Made by a program: the position numbers and the translations under genes | DNA from: an uncultured Acidobacteriaceae bacterium | GTDB lineage: Bacteria > Acidobacteriota > Terriglobia > Terriglobales > Acidobacteriaceae | Direction of reading: 5' to 3' | Assembly: GCA_963743135.1 (NCBI GenBank) | Contig: CAVUON010000005.1 | Coordinates: 499,732-563,731 of the forward strand | Length of the DNA: 64,000 nt | The notes under the pieces: generated by a model | What the model was told of the DNA's origin: nothing | The model's input: the letters and a program-made list of their open reading frames with translations, nothing else | The model's database searches: none | In this document: piece after piece, positions 7,011 to 29,383 of the stretch | How positions within the stretch are numbered: position 1 is the first letter of the stretch | How the letters are laid out: the number at the start of each line of letters is the position of its first letter

Positions 7011-7976
7011 ATGATATACGGCAGACGGGCCCCGGCGGACTGTTTCGGCGAGTGCGTTAGTCTGGCAAATGGAGCGATTGAGGCGAGCGTGATACGAAGA
7101 AATCTGAATTTGAGGGGGACGTGGACCAAGCTTAAGCGCGGCGTTGCTTTGTCCGTGCCGGGACTGTTGCTCCTTTGGGGCGCGTCATTCTGCCGGGCTG
7201 CGGCGCAAACTGAATCGGCTTCTACAGCCAGCATCGGACAAGGGAAGACGGTGATGGTGGACGCATGGTTCAACAGCCAGCAGCGGATGAATGCGGCCGG
7301 GCAGAAAGTCTACTTCCATTACAAGTGGGACGACACGAGCGAGACCGGGTTCTCGCTTCTCGGGCAGATCTTTCATCGCTACGGTGCAAAGACCGATACG
7401 CTGTACACGGCTCCGACGGTGAAGAAATTGAATGCGGCGCAGATTTACATCATCGCGTCGCCTGATATACCTGCGAAAAATCCGCATCCGCACTATGTGC
7501 AGCCGCGGGACGCGCAGCAGGTAGCGAAATGGGTGAAGCAGGGAGGGGTGCTGGTTCTAATGGAGAACGACCCGGCCAATGCGGACATCGATCATTTGAA
7601 CCTGCTTGCCCAGTACTTTGGGATTCATTTCAATGACGTGCTTAGCCATCACGTGATTGGACATCAGATTGAAAGCGGACGAATTCCAGTGAGCGGAGAG
7701 GGTCCGGTGTTTCATCATCCGCACACGCTTTACATGAAAGACACTTGTACGCTCTCAGTCGAGAGACCCGCTGTTCCGCTGCTGACGGACAAGGGACAGA
7801 TCGTTATGGCAAGCGCGAAGTACGGCAAGGGAACTGTGTTTGCCGTCGTCGATCCCTGGCTCTACAACGAGTACACAAATGGCCGTAATCTTCCGGCGCA
7901 GTATGACAATTACGCGGCGGGGGAAGAGTGGGCGCGCTGGCTGCTTGAGCAGGCGCCGGATTACAGCGGGAACTAA
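7011..7976 (+). CDS. Secreted protein of unknown function (possibly GATase1-like/DUF4350-like fold)
   Basis: Long ORF with an internal signal-peptide-like stretch (KLKRGVALSVPGLLLLWGASFCRAAAQ). The true start may be an in-frame GTG/TTG near 7089-7110. The function call is a guess. Confidence 0.5.
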   Translation: MIYGRRAPADCFGECVSLANGAIEASVIRRNLNLRGTWTKLKRGVALSVPGLLLLWGASFCRAAAQTESASTASIGQGKTVMVDAWFNSQQRMNAAGQKVYFHYKWDDTSETGFSLLGQIFHRYGAKTDTLYTAPTVKKLNAAQIYIIASPDIPAKNPHPHYVQPRDAQQVAKWVKQGGVLVLMENDPANADIDHLNLLAQYFGIHFNDVLSHHVIGHQIESGRIPVSGEGPVFHHPHTLYMKDTCTLSVERPAVPLLTDKGQIVMASAKYGKGTVFAVVDPWLYNEYTNGRNLPAQYDNYAAGEEWARWLLEQAPDYSGN

Positions 7977-16364: not shown

Positions 16365-17615
16365 TCAGCAACTCTCGATCGTGACCTTCAACTCGGAGGA
16401 TGCGCCTGGGTCCTGGGGTGTTTCGTAGCGACCGCCCCTGACTTGCGCGGGATGGACGAAATGGCTGCCCAGATGTGGAATGTGTTCGAGGAACAACGCC
16501 TCATGTCCGAGTGCAATGTGATTGAACAGTGCAAGATGTTGATGCACCTGTCCCATGTCGCCGACGTGGGGCACAATGGGGAATCCCATGGTCTTTGCGA
16601 GCAGACTGACAGTGAGGAATTCGGATACTCCGGCCAGTCTGGTGCAGTCCGCCTGCACATAGTGCAGGGCGCCGGATTGCAGAAAGTTTTTGAACATAAC
16701 GCGATTTGGAATATGCTCGCCCGCAGCAATTCTTAACGGAGCGATTTCATGCGCCAAAGCCACATGGGCATGAATGTCGTCCGGATGCGTGGGCTCTTCA
16801 ATCCATAGCGGACGAAATGCGGCCAGTGCGCGGCACATGCGCATAGCAGAAGGAAGGTTCCAATGCTGGTTTGCGTCGAACATGACTGTGCAGGAGTCGC
16901 CCACATATCGGCGAAGCATCTCCGCGCGGCGCAGATCGCGCTTCTCGTCAGCCGATCCAACTTTGAGCTTGAACGCCGTGAATCCCTGGTCGATTGCGCG
17001 TGCGGTCGATTCTCGCACTTTGTCATCGTCGTAAGCCATCCACCCCACGGACGTGTCATACCCTGGATAGCCGCTCGTGAGAAGAGACTCGCGTTGGACG
17101 CGGCTTGAAAGCTGGCTGCGCAGTAACTGGAGGGCGTCGCCGGCGCTCAATACGTCTTCGAGGTAGCTGAGGTCGAGGAGGCGCACAACTCCTTCTGGTG
17201 TGAGGTCAAGCAATAGCTTCCATAGCGGGACGCCGCGGTTCTTGGCCCATAGGTCGAAACAGGCATTGGTGATGGACTCCAGCGCAAGGTGAACCACACC
17301 TTTGTGAGGCCCGAGCCAGCGCAGGGATGGATCATCGGCCATTTGCCGGGAAACCGAGCCAAACTCCGTCATGAGATCTTCGATCGGCCTCCCGAGCAGC
17401 GGTTTCGCGAGCAACTCGATTGCGTCGCAAACCAGGCGGTTTCCTTCGCCGAGCGTAAGAGCAATCCCCGTCCCGCAAACGTTGTTTTGGCTTTTGAGCA
17501 GCGTTGTGGCGAAACAGTATTGAGGATTGGTATGGGCGGCGTCCGACCCAGCCCCCGATGGCAAAGAAAACCGCGCGTCATACGTCGAAAGAGAAGCAAT
17601 GTTATAGTCCGGCAT
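16365..17615 (-). CDS. fucD: L-fuconate dehydratase (enolase superfamily, MR subgroup)
   Basis: Close resemblance to FucD/ENOSF1-type proteins (DARFSLP, SDAAHTNPQY, FKLKVG, MFDANQ, IEEPT). Confidence 0.8.
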   Translation of the reverse strand: MPDYNIASLSTYDARFSLPSGAGSDAAHTNPQYCFATTLLKSQNNVCGTGIALTLGEGNRLVCDAIELLAKPLLGRPIEDLMTEFGSVSRQMADDPSLRWLGPHKGVVHLALESITNACFDLWAKNRGVPLWKLLLDLTPEGVVRLLDLSYLEDVLSAGDALQLLRSQLSSRVQRESLLTSGYPGYDTSVGWMAYDDDKVRESTARAIDQGFTAFKLKVGSADEKRDLRRAEMLRRYVGDSCTVMFDANQHWNLPSAMRMCRALAAFRPLWIEEPTHPDDIHAHVALAHEIAPLRIAAGEHIPNRVMFKNFLQSGALHYVQADCTRLAGVSEFLTVSLLAKTMGFPIVPHVGDMGQVHQHLALFNHIALGHEALFLEHIPHLGSHFVHPAQVRGGRYETPQDPGASSELKVTIESC

Positions 17616-17704: not shown

Positions 17705-18550
17705 TCAAATACCCAACAAAATTACTGGGCCGCGGAGGTATGCAATCTGGCAGAGTGCCACGAGCCGCTCTTCCGGTTGGTTGAAGGCCTGCGCGAGCCG
17801 GGAGGAAGAACGGCGGAGAAGATGTACGGAGCGCCCGGATGGGTGGCGCACGTCTCGACGAATGCTTGGGGATTTACCGCTCCGGGCGGAGGGCTCGGCT
17901 GGGGCCTGTTTGTAACGGGCGGCGTGTGGATCGCCTCGCAGATGTGGCGACACTACCAATTTACGCAGGATGCCGGGTTTCTTCGGCAGCGCGCCTATCC
18001 GGTCCTGAAAGACGCCGCGGAGTTCTACCTGGCGTATATGGTGACGCACCCGAGGTATGGCTGGCTGGTGACGGGGCCCTCGGAGTCGCCGGAAAACTGG
18101 TTTCTTACGCCGGAGGGCAAGACGTGCAGCGTGTCGATGGGGCCGACCTGCGACAGCGTTCTGGTCTATGCGCTATTCAGCGCGTGCATGGAGGCTTCGA
18201 TGATTCTCGGGATCGATCCAGAGTTTCGCAGCCGGCTTGAAGCGGCACGCGCAAAACTGCCGCCGCTGCAGATTGGCAGGCATGGCCAGCTTCAGGAATG
18301 GCTTGAGGATTTTGCGGAGGCGCAGCCGAACCACCGGCATACCTCGCACTTGATCGCCCTATATCCCGACAATCAGATTTCGCCCTACAAAACGCCGGCC
18401 CTTGCTGAGGCCGCCCGTGTAACCATCGAACGCCGCATCAACCACCCGGACTGGGAAGACACCGAATGGACCCGCGCCAACTTTATGAACTACTATGCGC
18501 GGCTTCTGGACGGAAACGCAGCCCATCTCCACGCGCAGGCCTTCGAGTAG
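17705..18550 (+). pseudogene. GH95 alpha-L-fucosidase, 3' fragment only (~280 of ~800 aa)
   Basis: Homology begins right after an in-frame TGA (17702-17704), inside the conserved NTQQNYWAAEVCNLAECHEPLF block, and runs to a normal C-terminus. There is no room for the N-terminal ~500 aa because the fucD start is at 17615. Confidence 0.75.
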
Positions 18551-18653: not shown

Positions 18654-19481
18654 CTAGGCGCGCAAGGCTCCAGCGCCATACTTCTTAGCAGCCTTCCTCT
18701 CGCCTGGGATTGCGGGATGCGGAGTGCCTCCGATTGCTTCAGAGAGTCGGAGGCTGGCTTGCCGCAATGCTGCGTGAACGTTCTTGGTCGTCGTCGACTC
18801 CTCAATTCTGGCCAGATAAGGCACGGTCAGCGCTGCCACTGCACTGCCACGCTCGTCCAGTACAGGGTATGTGATGTTGATTACACCGCGTATCTCATAG
18901 CTGTCGCGTTCTTCGTAGCCCTGCTCTTGTATCTTCCGCAGATGATCGTTGAGATCTCGGGGAGCCCGTTTTTGTGTAAGCTGTTGCCAGCTTTCGATAG
19001 CCCGTTCACGGGCATCCAGAGGCAAATGTGCGAGGATGACGTGGCCTGTAGCAGCGTGCATGAGATCGACCACCGCTCCCGCCTTGACGTAGAAACCGGG
19101 GCTGATAGGCGAATCGGCCTGCGCCACGATCACAACCTGTCCCGCCTCCAGCACGCCCAGGTGGCAGGACTGATGGATGACATGAACTACTTCCTGCATA
19201 ACAGGTAGTGCTTCGGAGACAAGGCGTTTTGCCGGGGGATATTCCAGCGACATGCGGAACATCTTAAGCGTCAGCCGGAAGCGGTCATTGTCGTCAACAC
19301 GCGCAATGTATCCGCGCACTTCAAGACAAAGAAGCATACGGAATATTTCAGAAACTGTACGGTTCAGGCGCCGCGCGACGTCACTCTTGGTCAGCCCCGT
19401 AGGCTCCTGTGTAAACAGTTCAAGAATATCCAGCCCTTTTTCCAGAGCGGGAGTGGGATAGTGTCGCTTACCTGTCTTCAA
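18654..19481 (-). CDS. IclR-family transcriptional regulator
   Basis: N-terminal wHTH (ALEKGLDILELF...LTKSDVARRLNRTVSEIFRML) plus an IclR effector domain. Confidence 0.85.
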   Translation of the reverse strand: MKTGKRHYPTPALEKGLDILELFTQEPTGLTKSDVARRLNRTVSEIFRMLLCLEVRGYIARVDDNDRFRLTLKMFRMSLEYPPAKRLVSEALPVMQEVVHVIHQSCHLGVLEAGQVVIVAQADSPISPGFYVKAGAVVDLMHAATGHVILAHLPLDARERAIESWQQLTQKRAPRDLNDHLRKIQEQGYEERDSYEIRGVINITYPVLDERGSAVAALTVPYLARIEESTTTKNVHAALRQASLRLSEAIGGTPHPAIPGERKAAKKYGAGALRA

Positions 19482-19712: not shown

Positions 19713-20951
19713 CTATTGTCCGCCTGCGAATGGGTAAAATGCGGCGGACGCGCCCACCCATTCCTGATCGCGGTTATGGTCTACGCCCATCATCTTGCCG
19801 CGTCCCAGCCGCACCAGAGAGATCACGGGCTCCAAATTTCCGCTATCCGGCCACAGATACAGGATGCGCACCTCAGGCTGCGTCGCCCCGAATGGTGTAT
19901 CCACCACCTGCTCAAAGTGCACCCTCTGCTGCAAAAGAAATTCATGGCGCTGCTGTTTCGGAATCGCCGCAAGGGTCTCGTCCGAGGGGGCGAATTCAAT
20001 TCCCTTTCCCGCAAACGAAAATAGAGGCTTCAAAATCCATTGTTCGCGGTCTTCCGGCAGCTTGTCATCGCCCTTCCCGGCCAGCCAGTCATCAAGAAAG
20101 ACCGCCGATGGAACGGCAGGATGATCCAGGTAGGGGATGGAAAATTTGCTGATATGGAAGTACCAGTTCGGGTGTCCGGCCCATTCCAGGTCGAACGGTT
20201 CGCGGTAGTCGAAGGGCAGCTCGATCTGCTTGCGTATCAGCTCGTCGACGATGGCCCGGTTATAGATGCGCCGGATCGGGACGAGTTTTTTGCCTTTGCG
20301 GTAAGAGAGACGGATCGGCTTACCGTGGCGGACCTCGGGCACCAGTTCCGTGATATCAACGATTTCAATGCCGAGACGCCCGGCGGTGAGCAGGAAATCG
20401 GGCAGTGTCTTCTGCTTCCTGGGTTCGACTTCGGTCAGCACGACATTCTCCGGATCGTGCCCGTGCACGATGACGCGCTCCATCAGCTTCCAGAAGCTCG
20501 TTTCGCTATGGCCTCCGAGCAAATAACCGAGCGAACCATCGAGCTGATAGGTTGAGCGATAGAGTTCTGAAAGCACGATCTGGAAAGCAAACACCGATGG
20601 GAAGGCCTGCAGTTCCACCAGCTTCGGCGTCAGCCTTCCGTTACGGTCACGCACCAGCCCAAAATCGGCGGTCATGAAATGCGGATGCGGCGTCTCATCC
20701 GCCGCACAATACTTCTCAGGAATCATCGCGCGCGAGGCTTGCAAATAGCTCTTGTCTTCGACGAGACGGCGCGTTAATTCCCCGCCGATTGCCGCGATCT
20801 CATCGAGCATTTCTTTTGGAAAGAAGCACGGCGTCTCAGCTATGCGGAATTCGACGTGCGTGCCTGCACGCGCATCGAGGCTATGCAGCATATTGCGGTA
20901 TGCTTCCGGGCGATACCGGCGGTTGAAGTCGTGGCGAAAGGATGCAATCAC
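19713..20951 (-). CDS. ATP-grasp-like amidoligase (glutathionylspermidine-synthase / permuted ATP-grasp-like), uncharacterised
   Basis: C-terminal half carries WILKPLFSFAGKGIEF ... EVRILYLW ... LVRLGRGKMMGVDHN, resembling GspS-type ATP-grasp cores. GTG start. Confidence 0.5.
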   Translation of the reverse strand: MIASFRHDFNRRYRPEAYRNMLHSLDARAGTHVEFRIAETPCFFPKEMLDEIAAIGGELTRRLVEDKSYLQASRAMIPEKYCAADETPHPHFMTADFGLVRDRNGRLTPKLVELQAFPSVFAFQIVLSELYRSTYQLDGSLGYLLGGHSETSFWKLMERVIVHGHDPENVVLTEVEPRKQKTLPDFLLTAGRLGIEIVDITELVPEVRHGKPIRLSYRKGKKLVPIRRIYNRAIVDELIRKQIELPFDYREPFDLEWAGHPNWYFHISKFSIPYLDHPAVPSAVFLDDWLAGKGDDKLPEDREQWILKPLFSFAGKGIEFAPSDETLAAIPKQQRHEFLLQQRVHFEQVVDTPFGATQPEVRILYLWPDSGNLEPVISLVRLGRGKMMGVDHNRDQEWVGASAAFYPFAGGQ

Positions 20952-21008
20952 GGTATGGAGTCCCGGGCAACAGAGTACCGCAAATGGTCGGCGAATATCG
21001 TCTGGCGA

Positions 21009-22055
21009 TTACGGGTCTACAAGGAACTTCCCGTCGCGCATGATCTGTTCTTCGTCTGCCCAGATGTTGAACCGCAGACCTACAACATCGATGTGCGTAG
21101 TCGAAGTCCACGGTGCACCCGTATGTTCGCCATAGGGGTTGCCGAATGCAATGTGGATGCCGGGAAATTTCTCGTCCTGCAGAATATTGCCGATCACATG
21201 CTCAATACCCAAATTCGTGCCGATAGCAAACTCGCCTACGCGGTCGGAGTTCTCATCCGTGTGCGTATAAGCCCAGAAATCGCCACGCAGCTGCTGGTTG
21301 TCTGAATGACAATCGACGATGCGGTTGCCCTTGATCTCAATGGTCAACGGCGTAGACGCAAGCAGACCGTAGCGGAAACAGAGATAGTCGCCAACAACAC
21401 CATCGACGACGAAAGTGCCATTGACTTCGCCGGGAGTGGTGAATATTTCACCGCCGGGTAGATTGCCCCACTTCTCACGTGAAATGAGACCGGAGGTTTT
21501 GAGCCACTTGTAATTCGGGTTCAATTCGGCACGAATATCAGTGCCAGCAGACGTGGTGGCGCGGACGTAGCTGGCGCGCCGCACTTTTTCGATGACCTTC
21601 TGGCTGAGGCGATCAACGAGTTGGAAATCGGCGCGCATGCCTTCGCACATAATCTGCGGAGTGATATTGACCATGTGCGCGTGGCGCATGCGACGACGAT
21701 TAACGACTTCGGTCATCTGCATACGCGAACGCAGCTCATTCTGCTGCACCTGCACGGCAAAAATGCTGACGTCCGACGTCTCCATGTCTTCAAGAACGAC
21801 AGCCGGCATATTCTTGAGCGGACGGGAGGCGAAGTCCTCAAGCGTGAAAGCATTCCAGTTGCAGCCATTTGCTACCAGCTCGGCGGCAATGGCCGCGGCG
21901 ATCGGAGCAGTTTCACGATCGGTTATCAGGGTGACTTTTTCTTTTTGCTCGATGCGCAGGCAAGTAAAAACAGCAGCGTGCGCTCCTGGCGCGAACTCTT
22001 GAGGAAAGGGCGTGTCAAGCAGCGCCTGGACTTGCGGTGTTGCGGAATAAGTCAT
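21009..22055 (-). CDS. M29-family aminopeptidase (AmpS/PepS-like)
   Basis: GGEIFTTP, EFAIGTN, QDEKFPGIHIAFG motifs of thermophilic metalloprotease family M29. Confidence 0.75.
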   Translation of the reverse strand: MTYSATPQVQALLDTPFPQEFAPGAHAAVFTCLRIEQKEKVTLITDRETAPIAAAIAAELVANGCNWNAFTLEDFASRPLKNMPAVVLEDMETSDVSIFAVQVQQNELRSRMQMTEVVNRRRMRHAHMVNITPQIMCEGMRADFQLVDRLSQKVIEKVRRASYVRATTSAGTDIRAELNPNYKWLKTSGLISREKWGNLPGGEIFTTPGEVNGTFVVDGVVGDYLCFRYGLLASTPLTIEIKGNRIVDCHSDNQQLRGDFWAYTHTDENSDRVGEFAIGTNLGIEHVIGNILQDEKFPGIHIAFGNPYGEHTGAPWTSTTHIDVVGLRFNIWADEEQIMRDGKFLVDP

Positions 22056-22124
22056 TCTCGATATGGCTACCTTCTGGCTATAGCTCTAGGGTATCGAAAA
22101 ATGGCTGCAAATGGGTATCTATCT

Positions 22125-23237
22125 CTAGCCGTCGAACAGGCCGACCTGCGTCTCTTCCGACATGTAATCGACTACTGCATTGAGATCATTGGTTTCCTCG
22201 AACTTGCGCAGCTGGCGGTCAGCCCCCGTTCCCATCTCCAGAATTTGGCGGATGTAAGCGATCGGTTCGTGGCTGTCAAGCTCGTCGACAACTTCGGCAA
22301 TGAAATCCAGATATTCGAGAATCAGTTCGCGCTCCGGCACTTCTATCTCTTTGCCGAAATCGATGAGCTTGCCATCGAGTCCGTAGCGCACGGCTCGCCA
22401 CTTATTTTCCATGATGAGGGCACGGGAATAATGGCGAAAGTCCTGATTGCGTTCGTGCAAACGGTAAAGCGTTACCGCTGTGGCCTGAATGAGCGCCGCA
22501 ATGGCCAGGGTTTCTTCGGCGCGCATGGGCAGATCGCAGATCCGCACTTCGACAGTATTGAAGAAAGGATGGGGGCGGACGTCCCACCAGATTTTCTTGG
22601 CGTTGTCGAGACAATTGGTCTTGATAAGCAGGTTGACGAACGCTTCATACTGGGCAAAGCTGTCAAAACGGTCGGGAATATTGGTGCGCGGAAACTTGTC
22701 GAAAACCTTCGAGCGATAACTCTTGAGGCCAGTCTTCATGCCACGCCAGAAGGGTGAATTTGTAGAAAGAGCCAGAATGTGCGGAAGAAAATAGTGCATG
22801 GAATTCATGATGCGGATCGCGACTTCCCGGTCTTCCACGCCAATATGCACATGCAGTCCAAAGATCAGGTTCGCGCGCGCCACAAGCTGCAGATCCTCCA
22901 CCACCTGCGCATAGCGGGGATCGGGGTAAATCTCCTGCGTGCGCCAGTCGGCAAAGGGGTGCGTAGCCCCTGCCACCAGCAATAAATCGTGCTCACGCGC
23001 AAGAGAGATCATGTGCCGCCGCAAATCGAATAGATCATTACGCGCTTCTTTCATGTTTTTACAGATGCACGTGCCAACTTCGATGACCGACTGGTGCATC
23101 TCCGCCTTAACGCGCTCCGCCAGCCGGCGCTGGCCTTTGGCAAGCATCTCCGTCGATAAGTGCGAGCGCAGGTCACGCGTCACAGGATCGACGGTCTGGT
23201 ATTCCTCTTCAATGCCAATCGTGAATGAAGGCCGCAT
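22125..23237 (-). CDS. Carboxylate-amine ligase, GCS2/YbdK family (COG2170)
   Basis: FTIGIEEEYQ N-terminus, GLHVHIGV, STNSPFW, WWDVRP motifs. Confidence 0.85.
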   Translation of the reverse strand: MRPSFTIGIEEEYQTVDPVTRDLRSHLSTEMLAKGQRRLAERVKAEMHQSVIEVGTCICKNMKEARNDLFDLRRHMISLAREHDLLLVAGATHPFADWRTQEIYPDPRYAQVVEDLQLVARANLIFGLHVHIGVEDREVAIRIMNSMHYFLPHILALSTNSPFWRGMKTGLKSYRSKVFDKFPRTNIPDRFDSFAQYEAFVNLLIKTNCLDNAKKIWWDVRPHPFFNTVEVRICDLPMRAEETLAIAALIQATAVTLYRLHERNQDFRHYSRALIMENKWRAVRYGLDGKLIDFGKEIEVPERELILEYLDFIAEVVDELDSHEPIAYIRQILEMGTGADRQLRKFEETNDLNAVVDYMSEETQVGLFDG

Positions 23238-23368
23238 GAGATTGGCCGTCCAAGTGTTTACGAAACGCCTGGCACGGCATTGCTCCTTTAAAGGTCAAAA
23301 CTGCTGGTGGAAAGTGTAGGCCCTTTTTCATCAAAACGGGACTATCGTGAAATCAAGCTCCTCGGCAG

Positions 23369-24376
23369 TCAGCCCGTCTTTTCAGATTTCGATTTCTTCG
23401 CGGATTTGCCCTTGGCCGGGATCTTCTTCTTTGCAGCACGCTCGCTCGCAGCGCCGAGAAAGGCTCCCCAGTGGAACTCCTGTATGGCGGGAGCCGACTT
23501 CGCTTTCTTTACGGCCAGTGCGGCAACCGTGTCGACGATCCAGTCAAAGTTCTTCTGCCCGACCGAGTGCAGGTCCGCATCGGGCGCTGGATTCATGAAG
23601 TCAATGGCGTAGGGCACGCCGTCTTCCACGGCAAATTCGACCGTGTTCAAGTCGTAGCCAAGCGCCTTGCACAATGCCAGCGCGTCTTTTTCTACACGAT
23701 CGATCAGCTTTTTGTCGTACTCGGGCGGGTCGAGCACATAACGCTGCGCATGCGGACGGCGAGGATCATACGGCATGATGTGGACTTTTTCCTGCCCGAC
23801 AACATAGCAACGGAAGTACTCATTGAACTTCACCGCGCGCTGCAGGGTCATGCAAAGGTCGCGGCTCTGGTCATAAGCGCGAAAAAACTCCTCAGGATTA
23901 TGCACATGATGCACATCGCGCCAGCCGCCGCCGTCGACCGGCTTCAGAAATGAGGGAAATCCGACATACTCGAATATCTCGTCCCAGTTCAGTGGAAATT
24001 CGAGGTTACGCATGGAACGCTCAGTTGTTCCGGGCGGCAGGTGCTTATGCGGAAGGATCACCGTCGGCGGCACGGCCACACCCAGCTTTGCGGCCAGCGA
24101 GTAATTGAAGAACTTGTCGTCAGCCGACCACCAAAACGGATTGTTGATGATGGCCGTGCCATTAAGAAGCGCATGCTTCAGAAACGCGCGGTAGAACGGA
24201 ATATCATGCGAGATGCGGTCAACAATGACCGCATAGGCGGGCGCCTTGTCCAGCCGGATGCCGCCGATATGCACGAACTCCGCGCTGATGCCGTCGAGTT
24301 TCATGGAATTGATGCGCTCCACCAGTGCACCGGGGAAAGTATTTTCCATGCCGAAGAGAACGCCGATTTTTTTCAC
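23369..24376 (-). CDS. ATP-grasp ligase (RimK/glutathione-synthetase-like) with Lys-rich C-terminal tail
   Basis: FPSFLKPVDGGGWRDV, YFRCYVVG, VEFAV..G.PYAIDFMN ATP-grasp pattern. Tail is AAKKKIPAKGKSAKKSKSEKTG. GTG start. Confidence 0.7.
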   Translation of the reverse strand: MKKIGVLFGMENTFPGALVERINSMKLDGISAEFVHIGGIRLDKAPAYAVIVDRISHDIPFYRAFLKHALLNGTAIINNPFWWSADDKFFNYSLAAKLGVAVPPTVILPHKHLPPGTTERSMRNLEFPLNWDEIFEYVGFPSFLKPVDGGGWRDVHHVHNPEEFFRAYDQSRDLCMTLQRAVKFNEYFRCYVVGQEKVHIMPYDPRRPHAQRYVLDPPEYDKKLIDRVEKDALALCKALGYDLNTVEFAVEDGVPYAIDFMNPAPDADLHSVGQKNFDWIVDTVAALAVKKAKSAPAIQEFHWGAFLGAASERAAKKKIPAKGKSAKKSKSEKTG

Positions 24377-24507
24377 GTCTGCAGCCTCTTGATCAAGATG
24401 CGATACCCGCCGTCAGCGCAGTTCCCGGCGGCTTCACTTGCGCTTCCACAATACACCCGTTGGCAACAGGTTTTCGCTAATTTGCCAATTTGCTGACTCC
24501 CGCAATC

Positions 24508-25218
24508 TCAGAGATACTCGTTCATCATGCGCGCCCAGGTCGGCCAGTCGTGACTGTTCCACGAGTCCCAGATATAGAGCTGGTGCGGGATACCCTTTTC
24601 ACCCATGAGGCGCGAAAGATACTGATTCGAGCCGAGACATTGGTCATCCCAGCCTGTGGCCAGTAAATACGTATTGTGCCTGTAGCGGTCGAAATACCAT
24701 GGGTCAGACAATTTCGGAACGTAGTGCGTGGGTGTGTGGAAGTAGACGTCATTGTCATAATAGCCGTGCAGGAAGCTGGTCTGGTCAAAGGCGCCACTCA
24801 TTGAGAGGAAACCGGTGAAGCGGTCGGGGTGGCGCAGCGCGAGGTTGACGGCATGGTATCCGCCAAAGCTGCAGCCCAGGGCAATGAGGTTCGGGTCGCC
24901 GTTCTTCAGGTGGACCAGGGGCAGTACTTCATCCATCACATAGTTCTCGTATTGCGCGTGACGGGCGATGCGCCATTGAGGAGAAACATTGCGGTTGTAC
25001 CAACTCTCCGCATCGACGCTGTCTAGGCAATAGAGCTGCAACTGGCCGTTTTCTATCTTGTGCCAGAGGGCATTAATCATTCCGCGATCCTCAAACTCGT
25101 AAAAGCGCCCCTGGGATGAGGGAAACACAATGGCCTGCACGCCCGAGTGTCCGAAGACCAGCAATTCCATGTCGCGCCCGAGGCGAGACGACCACCATTT
25201 GTGATATTCGCGGTTCAT
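24508..25218 (-). CDS. Esterase-D/'putative esterase' (PF00756-like) alpha/beta hydrolase
   Basis: GCSFGG nucleophile elbow and DRFTGFLSMSG. ATG 25218 preferred over the GTG at 25269. Confidence 0.7.
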   Translation of the reverse strand: MNREYHKWWSSRLGRDMELLVFGHSGVQAIVFPSSQGRFYEFEDRGMINALWHKIENGQLQLYCLDSVDAESWYNRNVSPQWRIARHAQYENYVMDEVLPLVHLKNGDPNLIALGCSFGGYHAVNLALRHPDRFTGFLSMSGAFDQTSFLHGYYDNDVYFHTPTHYVPKLSDPWYFDRYRHNTYLLATGWDDQCLGSNQYLSRLMGEKGIPHQLYIWDSWNSHDWPTWARMMNEYL

Positions 25219-25301
25219 GATTTCGTTCTCATTCCTGCTACTCTGGAGCGTAACAGGCGGCGTGGTCACGCATCACAAAGAGGAGCGCACCGCGACCGCC
25301 A

Positions 25302-26177
25302 ATGAAGAAACGTAGAGGAAACAGCAGCGAGTTGGCAACAGAGATTCCAGATATTCCTGCGAACGATCAAGTCCTCGATCTTCCGGCGCTTCCTGCCCGC
25401 GTCAAGGTACATCCCCAATTTCACAGTCGCTTTCTGGAACATGACCGCGACATCTCCGTCTACGTGCCTCCAGGGTACGAGGAAGAGCCGCATCGTGACT
25501 TCCCAGTGCTTTACCTGCACGATGGACAGAACCTTTTCGATCCGCGCACGTCCTTTGTTCGTGGACAGACCTGGCGCGTGGCGGAGACTGCCGATGTGGT
25601 CATCGAGGCGCGAGAAGTCGAACCGCTCGTCATCGTAGGCATCGCCAATTCCGGCGAGCAGCGGCTCGCGGAGTACACGCCCGTCCGCGACAGAAAGCTG
25701 GGCGGCGGCGAAGCGGGCAAATATGGAAGACTCATCACAGAGGAGCTGATGCCTTTTATCAGATCGAACTACCGCACGCTCGAAGGGCCGGCGCATACCG
25801 GTTTGGGAGGGTCTTCACTCGGCGGATTAGCGACGCTCTACCTTGGTCTGAAGTATTCTAAGATTTTCGGTCGGCTTGCCGCGCTTTCGCCCTCCATCTG
25901 GTGGGGTAAGAAAAACATCATCGGTTACGTAAATGAAGCGAGGCCAGCGTGCAGGCCGCGCATCTGGCTGGACATTGGCGACGCGGAAGGACCTCGCGCT
26001 CTTGCGGATGCCGATCTGCTGGAACGTCGGCTCAAGGCACGTGGCTGGCGGACCAACATCGACCTACACTATGAGCACATTGCCGGAGGCACGCACGACG
26101 AAGCGGCTTGGGCGGAACGAGTCGGCCCGATGCTGCGGTTTCTCTACCCTGCCGTGAGGCGAGAGAATCTGGAGTAA
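25302..26177 (+). CDS. Esterase, enterochelin-esterase-like (PF00756-like)
   Basis: VYVPPGY, FPVLYLHDGQNLF, GGSSLGG nucleophile elbow. Divergent from the ligase operon. Confidence 0.75.
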   Translation: MKKRRGNSSELATEIPDIPANDQVLDLPALPARVKVHPQFHSRFLEHDRDISVYVPPGYEEEPHRDFPVLYLHDGQNLFDPRTSFVRGQTWRVAETADVVIEAREVEPLVIVGIANSGEQRLAEYTPVRDRKLGGGEAGKYGRLITEELMPFIRSNYRTLEGPAHTGLGGSSLGGLATLYLGLKYSKIFGRLAALSPSIWWGKKNIIGYVNEARPACRPRIWLDIGDAEGPRALADADLLERRLKARGWRTNIDLHYEHIAGGTHDEAAWAERVGPMLRFLYPAVRRENLE

Positions 26178-26989: not shown

Positions 26990-27834
26990 GAACGGTTGAC
27001 GGTGCCGCCGAATTGGCGTGCTGCGAACGGCTCATTGGATTCTCCATGGAGTTCCGCAAGGCGCGCCAGCAGCGGGGCAAGTGGCGGGCAATGAGTCTTC
27101 GTGCGTATGAGATGACCGGATCAGTCCCGTGAAACGATAGGACCCTATCAGGGCCGCCCGGCCAAAGATGAGTGAAAAATCGCCAATGCACTCGTCGAGG
27201 GTCAGCGAACCTCTCAACCACGAGTGCGTTCTAGATGGCGTTTGATACTGGCACATCAGAGGTTCACGCAACGTGTGATGGTCCTTTTGGCCGGTACGAC
27301 CGGTTTGCGCCGGTCCGAACTGATCGCGCTCACGTGGCGAGATGTTTGCTTCGTCAACCTTCATATCGAAGTGAACAAGTCATGTGTTCGTGCTCAGATC
27401 GGCGAGACGAAGACGGTTGCTAGCGCCAAGCCCGTTTCTTTGCATCCAGTGGTTGGGAGGCGCTTCAAGAATGGCAACGGACAACCCCATACGCTGACGG
27501 TAGCGACTTCCTCTTTCCTTCAATACGGAATAACGGCGCGATCCCGGTTTGGCCGGATGTGATTCTTCAGAAAATCATCCGTCCTGCGGCTCAGCGTGCC
27601 GGGATTACCGGCAAGGTTGTGGGATGGCATACCTTTCGTCATTCGCTGGGCACGAACCTGTGGTTTCTGGGAGTCGATGTAAAGACAGCTCAGGAGCTGC
27701 TTCGCCACGCCAACGCCAAAATCACCCTTGACCTCTACACTCAGGCAACCTCTTCCCAGAAGCGGGAAGCGAGCGCCAAGGTGGTAGAAATGCTGCTCCC
27801 GATGGGACTCGGGCAAAATACTCAGCACCCTTGA
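26990..27834 (+). pseudogene. Tyrosine recombinase/phage integrase remnant (5'-truncated, frameshifted)
   Basis: Catalytic-domain motifs are split over frames: LLAGTTGLRRSELIALTWRDV (frame of 27224) and WEALQEW...GWHTFRHSLGT...LLRHANAKITLDLYTQ (frame of 27559). The shift is near 27451-27458. Upstream homology is patchy with stops. The left boundary is approximate. Confidence 0.7.
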
Positions 27835-27887: not shown

Positions 27888-27962
27888 TGGTGGGCGCAGC
27901 AGGGATCGAACCTACGACTTCCACCGTGTGAAGGTGGCACTCTACCGCTGAGTTATGCGCCC
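27888..27962 (-). tRNA. tRNA-Val (anticodon CAC), CCA encoded
   Basis: Reverse complement folds as a cloverleaf: GGGCGCA-TA-ACTC-AGCGGTA-GAGT-G-CCACC-TTCACAC-GGTGG-AAGTC-GTAGG-TTCGATC-CCTGC-TGCGCCC-A-CCA. Confidence 0.9.
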
Positions 27963-28066
27963 CGGGGCGGGAACTTTTTCAGAGTATCACTCTTGTTCCG
28001 GGGCTGCCAGTCGGCGGTCTTCGGCTTGTGACGGGATTTCCCGGATACAATCTTTTTACCTGCTCA

Positions 28067-28849
28067 ATGGCCCATCGTGAACCAGATTCGTCCCCCGACT
28101 CGCACGCGTCGTTTCAAGCATCTGAGGGGAAATCCAGCGACGAAAACGACCTGCTGGAACCGCAACCAGATGAGGAAAACGGGGTTGAAGAAGACATGGC
28201 TACCGTTGCTCTTGATCGGCCACTTTCTGGTGCTTCGCAGTCCGGGACCGTCAGTCGCAGGACGGCGGGGGACTGGGGCGTCATGACGGACGCGGAGATC
28301 ATGCTCCGCGTGCGGGAGGGCGATGACGCCGGATACGACATCCTGATCCGGAAGTATCATAAGCCGATCATCAACTTCATGTTCCGCATGGTGCATAACC
28401 AGGCGGTGGCGGAGGAGCTGGCGCAGGAGGTCTTTCTGAGGGTTTACCGGTCGCGGCAGACGTACCGGGCGGAGGCCAAGTTTACGACGTGGCTCTACCG
28501 GATTGCGACCAACCTGGGCGTGAATCATGCGCGGGACACGAAGTATGAGCGGACGGCGCAGAGCGTCTATCTCGACCAGCCCGATCCGGAGACGGGAACG
28601 ACTCCCGATGTGGCGGATATGACGGCTTCGGTTGAGGAGAGCCTGGTTCGGGATGAGCGGATGGCAGCGATTCGCAAGCATGTGATGGCGTTGCCGGAGC
28701 GGCAGCGGACTGCCGTGCTGATGCACAAGTATCAGGATATGGATTATAAGCAGATCGGCGAGGTGCTGAAACTGAGCGAGTCGGCTACGAAGTCGCTGCT
28801 TTTCAGGGCTTACCAGACGCTGCGGGAACGCTTGAAGGATTTTGTTTAA
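28067..28849 (+). CDS. ECF-type sigma-70 factor with acidic N-terminal extension
   Basis: Region 2 (FRMVHNQAVAEELAQEVFLRVY, TWLYRIATN) and region 4 (LPERQRTAVLMHKYQDMDYKQIGEVL). The start is uncertain (28028/28067/later Met). Confidence 0.8.
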   Translation: MAHREPDSSPDSHASFQASEGKSSDENDLLEPQPDEENGVEEDMATVALDRPLSGASQSGTVSRRTAGDWGVMTDAEIMLRVREGDDAGYDILIRKYHKPIINFMFRMVHNQAVAEELAQEVFLRVYRSRQTYRAEAKFTTWLYRIATNLGVNHARDTKYERTAQSVYLDQPDPETGTTPDVADMTASVEESLVRDERMAAIRKHVMALPERQRTAVLMHKYQDMDYKQIGEVLKLSESATKSLLFRAYQTLRERLKDFV

Positions 28850-28873: not shown

Positions 28874-29383
28874 ATGAGCTGCCGGAAATTTGAAACCGAG
28901 TTCAAGAATCTGCTGCCCGATCTGCTTCTGGATCGTGAGCGGGTTCCGGCTGCGGTGCGCGCCCATGTGGACGAGTGCGCAGATTGCAGCAAGGAACTGG
29001 CGTCTCTTGAAGCGACCATGCTGGCGCTGGACGGCTGGGAGGGTACGGAGCCTTCGCCGTTTTTTGATGCCCGGATGGCGGCGCGGATGCGCGCGGAGCG
29101 CGAGGCTCCGCCGGCGGGATTTCTTGAGCGGATGCGCGCGCGGCTGGTGTTTGGTTCGAACTTGCATTTGCGTCCGCTGGCTGCGGGAGCTTTGGCTTTG
29201 CTGCTGTTGATTGGCGGCGGAACTTACGCTGGTTTTGAGGGGCTGGGGCACTCGACGGCTCCGGTGGCGGCCTCGGCTACGGTTAAGGATTTGCAGTCTT
29301 TGGATGAGAACGCGCAGGTGTTTCAACAGATGAATTCGTTGGATGAGCCGGATGATAATTCGGCCAGCCAGGGGAGCAATTAG
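28874..29383 (+). CDS. Anti-sigma factor (zf-HC2 type), single TM
   Basis: HVDECADCSKEL H-x3-C-x2-C motif and a central TM (LAAGALALLLLIGGG). Follows the sigma gene directly. Confidence 0.75.
   Translation: MSCRKFETEFKNLLPDLLLDRERVPAAVRAHVDECADCSKELASLEATMLALDGWEGTEPSPFFDARMAARMRAEREAPPAGFLERMRARLVFGSNLHLRPLAAGALALLLLIGGGTYAGFEGLGHSTAPVAASATVKDLQSLDENAQVFQQMNSLDEPDDNSASQGSN

Follow-up and report, generated by a model that had tools for sequence, protein, structure and literature searches.

A conserved gene cluster of Acidobacteriaceae with three predicted amide ligases and an M29-fold hydrolase, a candidate system for building and recycling a small peptide-amine conjugate

We analysed a 64,000-bp stretch of genomic DNA from an uncultured Acidobacteriaceae bacterium (contig CAVUON010000005.1; the whole stretch is hereafter the window), in which six closely spaced genes between positions 19713 and 26177 bring together three different families of predicted amide ligases, GCS2, classical ATP-grasp and GspS/YgiC-type ATP-grasp, with a predicted metallohydrolase and two alpha/beta hydrolases. 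An initial annotation, made from the sequence alone, had proposed these six open reading frames (ORFs), and all of them were present with the coordinates and gaps that it listed. The locus comprises the following features (aa, amino acids):

19713-20951, minus strand: 412-aa predicted ATP-grasp ligase of the GspS/YgiC type ('CP412'), assigned by model fold and family profile; no Pfam family
21009-22055, minus strand: 348-aa predicted metallohydrolase of a divergent M29 type (PF02073), putative aminopeptidase or amide hydrolase
22125-23237, minus strand: 370-aa predicted GCS2/YbdK carboxylate-amine ligase (PF04107, NF010039)
23369-24376, minus strand: 335-aa predicted classical ATP-grasp ligase with a RimK/LysX/Ddl-like fold, assigned by model fold; no Pfam family
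about 23372-23467, minus strand: disordered Lys/Ala/Pro-rich C-terminal tail of the 335-aa protein, residues about 304-335 (AlphaFold model)
24508-25218, minus strand: 236-aa alpha/beta hydrolase (EstA), PF00756-like, at the head of the co-directional block
25219-25301, no strand: 83-bp intergenic region separating EstA from EstB, presumed to hold divergent promoters
25302-26177, plus strand: 291-aa alpha/beta hydrolase of the PF00756 esterase family (EstB), full-length match, divergent

The gaps between the minus-strand genes measured 57, 69, 131 and 131 bp, with 83 bp between EstA and EstB (25218/25302), whose divergent arrangement was also seen in other genomes. The longest ORF of EstA reaches a GTG at 25269, but since its homologues are 236-247 aa long, the ATG at 25218 (236 aa) is to be preferred as start. 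The 57-131 bp gaps contained no ORFs, and the ORF content of the cluster included no gene for a precursor peptide, a carrier protein, a non-ribosomal peptide synthetase (NRPS) or a transporter, which bears out the earlier statement that transporter, precursor and NRPS genes are missing. A scan for promoter and terminator consensus sequences returned no sites in the intergenic gaps and fewer sites overall than in shuffled controls, and was therefore uninformative on operon structure either way.

Families were assigned by Pfam and NCBIfam profile searches at curated cut-offs and by a sequence search of the PDB, and AlphaFold models of the 412-aa and 335-aa proteins were compared with known structures by Foldseek. 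Residues were considered conserved when kept in at least 95% of the aligned homologues (58 for the GCS2 protein and 67 for the M29-like protein), and by this measure the residues expected for catalysis were conserved in every protein of the cluster. The GCS2 protein matched PF04107 from position 2 to 291 of 291 with an E value of 2.4e-64 and 217.9 bits (cut-off 21), and the NCBIfam model NF010039, 'carboxylate-amine ligase', with 534 bits (cut-off 371), confirming its original classification; by these profiles, 22125-23237 is unambiguously predicted to encode a full-length GCS2/YbdK carboxylate-amine ligase. The GhExE motif, a Mg/ATP-site signature that defines the ligase superfamily (PMC2588565), reads G8-I-E10-E11-E12 in this protein, with G8, E10, E11 and E12 all conserved. 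The glutamate-cysteine ligase models of NCBIfam were its next-best matches, all of these equivalogs scoring below their cut-offs (the best, NF010043, with 348 versus 409 bits), and the EgtA model TIGR03444 reached 16 bits for a cut-off of 371.

The 412-aa protein had no sequence match in Pfam, NCBIfam or the PDB, and PF03738 (GSP_synth), PF14403 and PF04174 gave nothing on it at E values up to 0.01. Its AlphaFold model, with a predicted local distance difference test (pLDDT) score of 76 and a predicted template modelling (pTM) score of 0.79, was matched by Foldseek to ATP-grasp enzymes of the glutathionylspermidine synthetase (GspS) and eukaryotic glutathione synthetase type at E values of 7e-12 to 1e-8. 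The best match was Escherichia coli YgiC (7uk8; E 7e-12, template modelling (TM) score 0.57/0.60) and the second YjfC (E 1.2e-11), and further ones were the human and yeast glutathione synthetases, the trypanothione synthetase 2vpm, the fungal ligase Cp1B and 3n6x, a 'putative glutathionylspermidine synthase'. For YgiC, YjfC, trypanothione synthetase, 3n6x and the human and yeast enzymes the Foldseek probability was 1.00, with E values of 7e-12 to 2e-10 and a TM of about 0.45-0.60. A profile of 58 diverse family members recovered YgiC at 1.4e-5 and 3n6x at 1.6e-3, and 20 of these 58 members had sub-threshold GSP_synth matches of their own (best E 1.1e-4). Because structure model, family profile and sub-threshold matches agree, the protein is predicted to have an ATP-grasp core of the GspS type, and the hardest guess of the initial annotation was thus upheld. 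Residues K308, E360, R362 and N393 were conserved, and neither a CHAP amidase domain nor any other extra domain was fused to the protein. An NCBI entry labelled Silvibacterium sp. is 100% identical to it, and the window derives from a metagenome-assembled genome of this genus of Acidobacteriaceae. The family is large, with 1169 representatives at 50% identity (E up to 1e-3). In one of them, the 870-aa P0133, a Na+/solute symporter (PF00474) is joined to the ligase, which hints at a small-molecule substrate. Four distant members with about 43% identity to the 412-aa protein (P0125, P0126, P0134 and P0138) have an N-terminal segment resembling a signal peptide and are extended by about 150 Ala-rich residues, a make-up that would be odd for an ATP-dependent ligase.

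For the 335-aa protein no Pfam family was found either, and the search against PDB sequences returned weak matches to biotin carboxylase and Ddl. Its model (pLDDT 78) displayed a classical ATP-grasp fold followed by a tail with pLDDT below 50, and Foldseek matched it to Ddl, RimK, LysX/ArgX and PsnB at E values of 1e-15 to 1e-12, the highest TM being that to RimK (0.63/0.72). The protein can accordingly be placed, on the strength of its modelled fold, in the ATP-grasp superfamily, and K145, G149-G151, D259 and N262 were conserved, with ATP and Mg roles that we assign by analogy. Membership of the RimK or prokaryotic GshB families was rejected at the sequence level, as the RimK model TIGR00768 gave an E value of 5.6e-5 and 22.6 bits against a cut-off of 143.4, and none of 30 homologues had a RimK or GSH-S_ATP Pfam match even at E values up to 10. 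The label 'RimK/GSH-synthetase-like' given at first therefore stands for the fold, which is nearest to RimK and LysX, and falls for the sequence family. R2K_2 matches, seen in 24 of the 30 homologues, were discounted, their best E value being 0.017, far under the cut-off.

The Lys-rich tail that had struck the first annotator as odd is real, with residues 304-335 predicted to be disordered. It is rich in Lys, Ala and Pro, resembles histone H1, and varies in length and sequence among Acidobacteriaceae while persisting throughout. Basic low-complexity tails were also present on the homologues of an Ignavibacteriales contig (L081) and of a metagenome bin (L083), which are 62-67% identical to the 335-aa protein. 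We know of no polycationic C-terminal tail in RimK or LysX; binding of RNA, ribosomes, polyanions or membranes are candidate roles.

The 348-aa protein matched PF02073 (Peptidase_M29) with an E value of 1.9e-16 and 60.4 bits (cut-off 27), the match being confined to positions 204-353 of 406, that is, to the C-terminal catalytic half of the profile. Its sole match among PDB sequences was a weak one to the M29-fold dioxygenase NicX (7cn3). Residues E203, E275, H301, H321 and D323 were conserved in the 67 homologues, a pattern that may correspond to the M29 metal ligands of the AmpS structure. The M29 call is retained, in the sense of a predicted, divergent M29-fold metallohydrolase.

As for the two alpha/beta hydrolases, EstB matched PF00756 over its full length at 5e-30 and has a conserved Ser172, Asp224 and His265, and EstA, searched as the 24508-25269 ORF, matched PF00756 at 4.4e-9 and Abhydrolase_1 at 2.9e-9 and has a conserved GxSxG Ser134, Asp209 and His240 (numbered from the GTG at 25269). 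More specific identities were rejected. The model for S-formylglutathione hydrolase/esterase D (TIGR02821) scored the two proteins at 18.6 and 14.4 bits with a cut-off of 281.7, and both were far under the enterochelin esterase cut-off (59 versus 222 bits for EstB). They are hence best regarded, from their profile matches, as generic PF00756 alpha/beta hydrolases: the esterase family named at the outset was correct, and its hint at an esterase-D-type thioesterase for glutathione adducts was not.

To what extent these genes travel together was surveyed with the 412-aa family as anchor, the neighbours being scored around each anchor gene. The loci came from GTDB genomes (80 loci, 78 of them labelled Acidobacteriota and mostly Acidobacteriaceae), from metagenomes (80 loci, retrieved with a diverse 10-sequence alignment of the 412-aa family) and from nine loci looked up singly. 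Counts for Acidobacteriaceae refer to the 66 loci with at least 4.6 kb upstream of the anchor, and counts for the diverse set to 31 loci. The order EstA, ATP-grasp, GCS2 and M29 before the 412-aa gene, on one strand, was found in 29 of the 66 Acidobacteriaceae loci, usually with EstB divergent upstream, and the compact form of the window is shared with the Granulicella, Edaphobacter and Tunturiibacter group. In the diverse set, 24 of the 31 loci had at least one partner gene beside the 412-aa gene. The five-gene co-directional block recurred in L081 and L083, a six-gene form with the divergent esterase in bin L166, and the one-strand order ATP-grasp, GCS2, hydrolase, GspS-like gene in L167 and many metagenome contigs. 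Overall, dozens of independent loci, with proteins 50-80% identical, showed the same order and orientation, and order and strand were retained between Acidobacteriaceae, Ignavibacteriales and other bins at 50-70% protein identity. The clustering is far beyond chance, and the expected co-occurrence across genomes and phyla was thereby found. Two loci with the acidobacterial type of cluster, L048 and L051, are labelled Ktedonobacteraceae and Acetobacteraceae; both belong to metagenome-assembled genomes of a single sampling project and show 57% identity to the query, as Granulicella-type loci do, and we suspect mis-binned contigs.

Several positions of the cluster proved to be filled by different proteins in different loci. 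The M29-like gene lies directly upstream of the 412-aa gene in most linked loci; about 22 loci carry in this position, flanked by GCS2 and the 412-aa gene, the gene of a protein of about 278 aa resembling class-I glutamine amidotransferases (GATase-like; for example L086:2406-3242, L164:8162-9004 and L166:8165-9004, the last of 279 aa), a thiol hydrolase by type with conserved Cys107, His210 and Glu212. In L164 and L166 this gene overlaps the downstream 412-aa gene by 4 bp. Loci with just the M29-like gene and the 412-aa gene, or just the GATase-like gene and the 412-aa gene, also exist, and because of these hydrolase-only pairs we consider the hydrolase the closest partner of the GspS-like gene. 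The ATP-grasp slot upstream of GCS2 is taken in L124 (6197-7600) and L132 by a 467-aa ligase, which in L124 has weak CP_ATPgrasp_2, GSP_synth and CP_ATPgrasp_1 matches; this variant therefore has two GspS-like ligases. In L081, the interval 7072-7671 between ATP-grasp and GCS2 holds two genes, a 69-aa ORF that matched no family and one for a retropepsin-like aspartate (Asp) protease of 125 aa (PF13975/PF13650), an arrangement seen in one of the 31 diverse loci. Since slots are refilled by analogous enzymes, the evidence for a functional unit is strong, and the replacements point to a logic of ligase, ligase, amide hydrolase and ligase. EstA heads the block in 30 of the 66 Acidobacteriaceae loci and in 6 of the 31 diverse ones, and the divergent position of EstB is kept in 27 Acidobacteriaceae loci and in L103, L114, L137, L156 and L166. 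The core thus consists of GCS2, the GspS-like ligase and a hydrolase, with the ATP-grasp usually and the esterases less often present, and the six genes are no obligate unit.

Other genes met at these loci were discarded as components. Genes for Fic, aldo-keto reductase (AKR), histidine kinase, TROVE, tannase, MacB and IS200 proteins inside some Acidobacteriaceae clusters are taken to be insertions. Likewise, a pair of PilZ and LuxR-type response-regulator genes follows the 412-aa gene in 74 loci of Acidobacteriaceae; it occurs with or without the ligase block, is absent from the window and is read as lineage synteny. A 262-aa ORF after GCS2 in Silvibacterium bohemicum was examined as an M29 remnant and rejected.

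From the chemistry of the families involved we infer a possible pathway with its substrates, step order and product, namely the cytoplasmic, ribosome-independent, stepwise assembly of a small peptide-amine conjugate with its own turnover enzyme, to which we give slightly less than an even chance. The GCS2 protein would activate a carboxylate, most likely the gamma-carboxylate of glutamate, and form a first amide with an amino acid or amine, the RimK/LysX-like ATP-grasp would then extend the product at its free carboxylate, and the GspS/YgiC-like ligase would couple the peptide carboxylate to an amine, for example a polyamine. GspS and trypanothione synthetase join the carboxylate of glutathione to an amine in just this manner. 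The M29-like metallohydrolase would cleave an amide bond of the product, so that the GspS-like ligase might make, and the hydrolase break, the conjugate, much as the bifunctional GspSA does with synthetase and amidase in a single chain. The two alpha/beta hydrolases, the least constant parts, would be accessory, perhaps acting on (thio)ester adducts or precursors. Published work offers parallels: in the synthesis of glutathione and other peptide metabolites and cofactors, ATP-grasp and COOH-NH2 ligases with linked genes usually ligate in succession (PMC4431377), for carboxylate-amine ligases beside GATase-like thiol peptidases the predicted products are peptides resembling glutathione, not protein tags (PMC2588565), and YgiC and YjfC are peptidyl-polyamine synthetases according to Pederick et al. 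2023, as cited in PMC12568646. A build-and-recycle system for a small peptide, as first suggested, remains the best reading and gains from the finding that a GATase-like hydrolase can replace the M29-like one; the nature of its product still derives from family chemistry.

Several observations weigh against this pathway. Every step is modelled on distant relatives, the structural matches being 12-19% identical, and no gene of polyamine, cysteine or glutamate metabolism was consistently linked to the cluster among the loci looked up singly. M29 enzymes are alpha-aminopeptidases, a poor fit to the cleavage of gamma-glutamyl or C-terminal amide bonds. The closest relatives of the 335-aa ATP-grasp by modelled fold, RimK and LysX/ArgX, act on protein C-termini, and its conserved polycationic tail is left unexplained. 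The symporter fusion of P0133 may be a gene-calling read-through, as the ligase part has its own initial Met. The genes, moreover, are often apart: 32 of the 66 Acidobacteriaceae loci lack any partner gene within 9 kb of the 412-aa gene, which also stands alone in Blastocatellia (L082) and KSB1 (L165) contigs, and in close relatives the cluster is broken by unrelated insertions or spread over different contigs. Among the closest cultured relatives, that of Alloacidobacterium dinghuense is colinear but interrupted (EstB|EstA-[TROVE]-ATPgrasp-GCS2-[tannase, MacB]-M29-AKR), and that of S. bohemicum is split over contigs. Given lone GspS-like genes, insertions and separate contigs, the genes need not act only together. 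These same separations are what would be expected if the genes were adjacent by chance or through local synteny without shared function, a view that we nevertheless hold to be highly improbable, since order and strand persist from Acidobacteriaceae to Ignavibacteriales and other bins, slots are refilled by analogous enzymes and adjacent genes overlap by 4 bp.

The most serious competitor, unlikely as we judge it to be, is protein tagging, in which a protein with its gene at another site would receive C-terminal amino acids from the RimK/LysX-like ATP-grasp, this tail would be extended or cross-linked by the two other ligases (GCS2 and GspS-like) in the manner of PafA and Pup, and the M29-like or GATase-like hydrolase would trim it. 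RimK, the nearest fold by TM (0.63/0.72), lengthens ribosomal protein S6 at its C-terminus in this way, and rimK operons also encode Asp proteases such as the one that lies, with the 69-aa ORF, between ATP-grasp and GCS2 in Ignavibacteriales. The disordered polycationic tail, kept across phyla, might anchor the ATP-grasp on RNA, on ribosomes or on an acidic tail, and no family is more closely related to the Pup ligase PafA than GCS2 (PMC2588565). However, the Asp protease is confined to a single diverse locus, the ATP-grasp is far under the RimK threshold (22.6 versus 143 bits), and across 162 loci the cluster and its immediate neighbourhood contained neither a conserved small-ORF family nor a candidate substrate gene. 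The lack of such an ORF, and the P0133 fusion, itself perhaps a read-through, weaken tagging and disfavour a ribosomally synthesised and post-translationally modified peptide (RiPP). Carboxylate-amine ligases without a nearby Pup-like ORF have, furthermore, been argued to make small peptides (PMC2588565), and the characterised GspS-type relatives act on small molecules (PMC12568646).

If the product is instead small, two narrower proposals can be set beside the general pathway. One is a special case of it, rather improbable in our estimate, in which the product is a low-molecular-weight thiol like glutathionylspermidine (Gsp) or trypanothione: GCS2 would make gamma-Glu-Cys, the ATP-grasp would be GshB-like, the 412-aa protein GspS-like, the M29-like or GATase-like hydrolase a counterpart of Gsp amidase, and the PF00756 proteins S-formyl-thiol hydrolase-like. 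Every gene would then have its equivalent in the route from gamma-Glu-Cys through glutathione (GSH) to Gsp and in its amidase, trypanothione synthetase and glutathione synthetases are among the fold matches of the 412-aa protein, and the GCS2 family includes gamma-Glu-Cys ligases, whose NCBIfam models were the next-best ones here. Canonical gshA and gshB are reported absent from Acidobacteria and Ignavibacteriae, so that the pathway would not be redundant, but the same study predicts that these groups use bacillithiol or N-methyl-bacillithiol (PMC6282198). The GCS2 protein is also under every glutamate-cysteine ligase cut-off (at best 348 versus 409 bits), no GshB family match was obtained, the esterases are far under the S-formylglutathione hydrolase cut-off, no thiol-disulfide reductase is linked to the cluster, and YgiC, the nearest relative, makes no glutathionylspermidine (Sui et al. 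2012, as cited in PMC12506659). The other proposal, which we think quite unlikely too, is that amines are assimilated or detoxified by gamma-glutamylation, as in the Puu, Ipu and aniline routes, with the hydrolase later freeing glutamate and the remaining enzymes processing the bound intermediate, the role being catabolic or protective. A ligase next to a class-I-GATase-like hydrolase mirrors the established PuuA/PuuD-type ligase-hydrolase pairs, and minimal units of GCS2, GATase-like and GspS-like genes (L164), or of hydrolase and GspS-like genes, exist. Two further ATP-consuming ligases are, however, hard to place in a catabolic route, no oxidase, dehydrogenase or aminotransferase was consistently linked among the loci looked up singly, and Puu-type ligases belong to the glutamine synthetase family and not to GCS2.

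Three known kinds of system were considered and rejected: a graspetide or other RiPP cluster, as no precursor gene lies beside the ATP-grasp, the gaps are free of ORFs and the 162 loci share no small ORF; the Anbu/CP-ATP-grasp/alpha-E/transglutaminase tagging operon, as alpha-E, transglutaminase and Anbu are absent from the cluster of the window and from related loci; and an anti-phage defence system, as PADLOC gave 0 matches for all six proteins at E values up to 0.001.

The peptide-amine pathway proposed here is closest in logic to glutathione, Gsp and trypanothione synthesis and to GspSA, in which a carboxylate-amine ligase is likewise followed by ATP-grasps, the last ligase has the GspS/eukaryotic glutathione synthetase fold and a hydrolase is coupled to it. 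The cluster differs in that none of its three ligases reaches the GshA, GshB or GspS family threshold, in that its hydrolase is a separate protein of M29 or class-I-GATase fold whereas the amidase of GspSA is a fused CHAP domain, and in that a thiol or polyamine is conjectural for its product. YgiC and YjfC, the best structure and profile matches of the 412-aa protein, are similar to it in size and are stand-alone enzymes without an amidase domain, but they share 13-14% identity with it and lack the GCS2/ATP-grasp/M29 context, and the 412-aa family has no Pfam model. The ygiC and yjfC genes lie beside DUF1190 and PspA-like genes. RimK and LysX/ArgX resemble the 335-aa protein in fold, by TM, and share the retropepsin-like protease with one cluster variant (L081), yet the cluster protein is far under the RimK cut-off and no gene for an S6-like or LysW-like substrate is linked to it. 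The ligase-peptidase neighbourhoods predicted by Iyer, Burroughs and Aravind (PMC2588565; Mol Biosyst 2009, cited in PMC4431377) similarly combine a COOH-NH2 ligase, ATP-grasps and peptidases of unrelated folds, with glutathione-like peptide metabolites as their predicted products, but the ligase of PMC2588565 is of a different family from the GCS2 protein ('new CAL', for example in Clostridium perfringens). A full-text literature search returned no paper describing the cluster, which the amidoligase survey of Iyer et al. 2009 may list. With no characterised pathway, defence system or paper matching it, the cluster is still without an assigned product or pathway, as the initial annotation had stated; on the points that could have overturned that annotation, the predicted fold was found, the co-occurrence is real and no known pathway matched. 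What is known, therefore, is the superfamily of each protein and the general logic of several stand-alone amidoligases with a peptidase; the gene combination, its conservation from Acidobacteriaceae to Ignavibacteriales, the GspS-like family without a Pfam model, the interchange of M29-like and GATase-like hydrolases and the polycationic tail on an ATP-grasp enzyme are new.

The surroundings of the cluster in the window include the following features:

16365-17615, minus strand: enolase-superfamily MR_MLE gene
17777-18550, plus strand: truncated GH95 catalytic-domain ORF with a TTG start (profile positions 120-369 of 408), probably a pseudogene
18654-19481, minus strand: IclR regulator, downstream of the cluster
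27888-27962: tRNA-Val(CAC), adjoining an integrase remnant

The cluster had initially been placed inside a tRNA-Val island and considered possibly mobile, a view that we could not sustain. Directly beside the tRNA-Val gene, a Phage_integrase tyrosine-recombinase gene without its N-terminal part is spread over two frames (27224-27562 and 27559-27834) and looks like a decayed, frameshifted remnant. No second copy of the 25-nt 3' end of the tRNA-Val, and hence no att-like repeat, was found in the window with 3 mismatches allowed, and none of the 31 other cluster-bearing loci had a tRNA-Val gene, an unrelated tRNA-Leu being present in two of them more than 6 kb beyond the cluster. The IclR, GH95 and enolase-superfamily genes stand where the 74 relatives have the PilZ and response-regulator pair, and are unlinked to the cluster elsewhere. 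The guanine plus cytosine content was 0.54-0.57 across 18-28 kb of the window and about 0.58-0.61 in the flanks. The cluster is vertically conserved in the family and the flanking DNA is peculiar to the genome of the window. On the far side of the tRNA-Val lies a sigma-70 factor gene of the extracytoplasmic function (ECF) type with an unusually long acidic N-terminal extension (28028-28849), followed by an ORF for a probable anti-sigma factor (28874-29383). Further on, from about 35000 to 58000, the GC skew was strongly positive (0.10-0.25) and the AT skew negative over more than 20 kb, in comparison with values close to zero over 1-35 kb; this shift may come from a change in composition or from long genes of one orientation.

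Few soil bacteria are more abundant than Acidobacteriaceae, a group with much unassigned metabolism. The cluster is compact, has conserved catalytic residues and is shared across phyla, and should therefore be tractable by heterologous expression and liquid chromatography-mass spectrometry. Solving it would provide a physiological role for a YbdK-type GCS2 ligase, a family whose role has, to our knowledge, been open since the YbdK structure of 2004, and a first function for an ATP-grasp family that has no Pfam model and comprises about 1,200 clusters at 50% identity. It would also tell whether, beyond Enterobacteria and trypanosomatids, a peptide-amine conjugate is regulated by a synthetase and a hydrolase, here as separate proteins. 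In its boldest form, which we put forward as a speculation with the odds against it, the cluster would make a widely distributed and hitherto undescribed peptide-amine metabolite of Acidobacteriaceae, Ignavibacteriales and other soil and sediment bacteria, for example a glutathionylspermidine-like thiol or a gamma-glutamyl-peptidyl-polyamine, whose level is set by the ligase/hydrolase pair as in GspSA. If this were true, the metabolite would join the few low-molecular-weight cofactors or protectants known from bacteria, and if the product were a thiol or a protein tag, its reach would extend well beyond Acidobacteriaceae.

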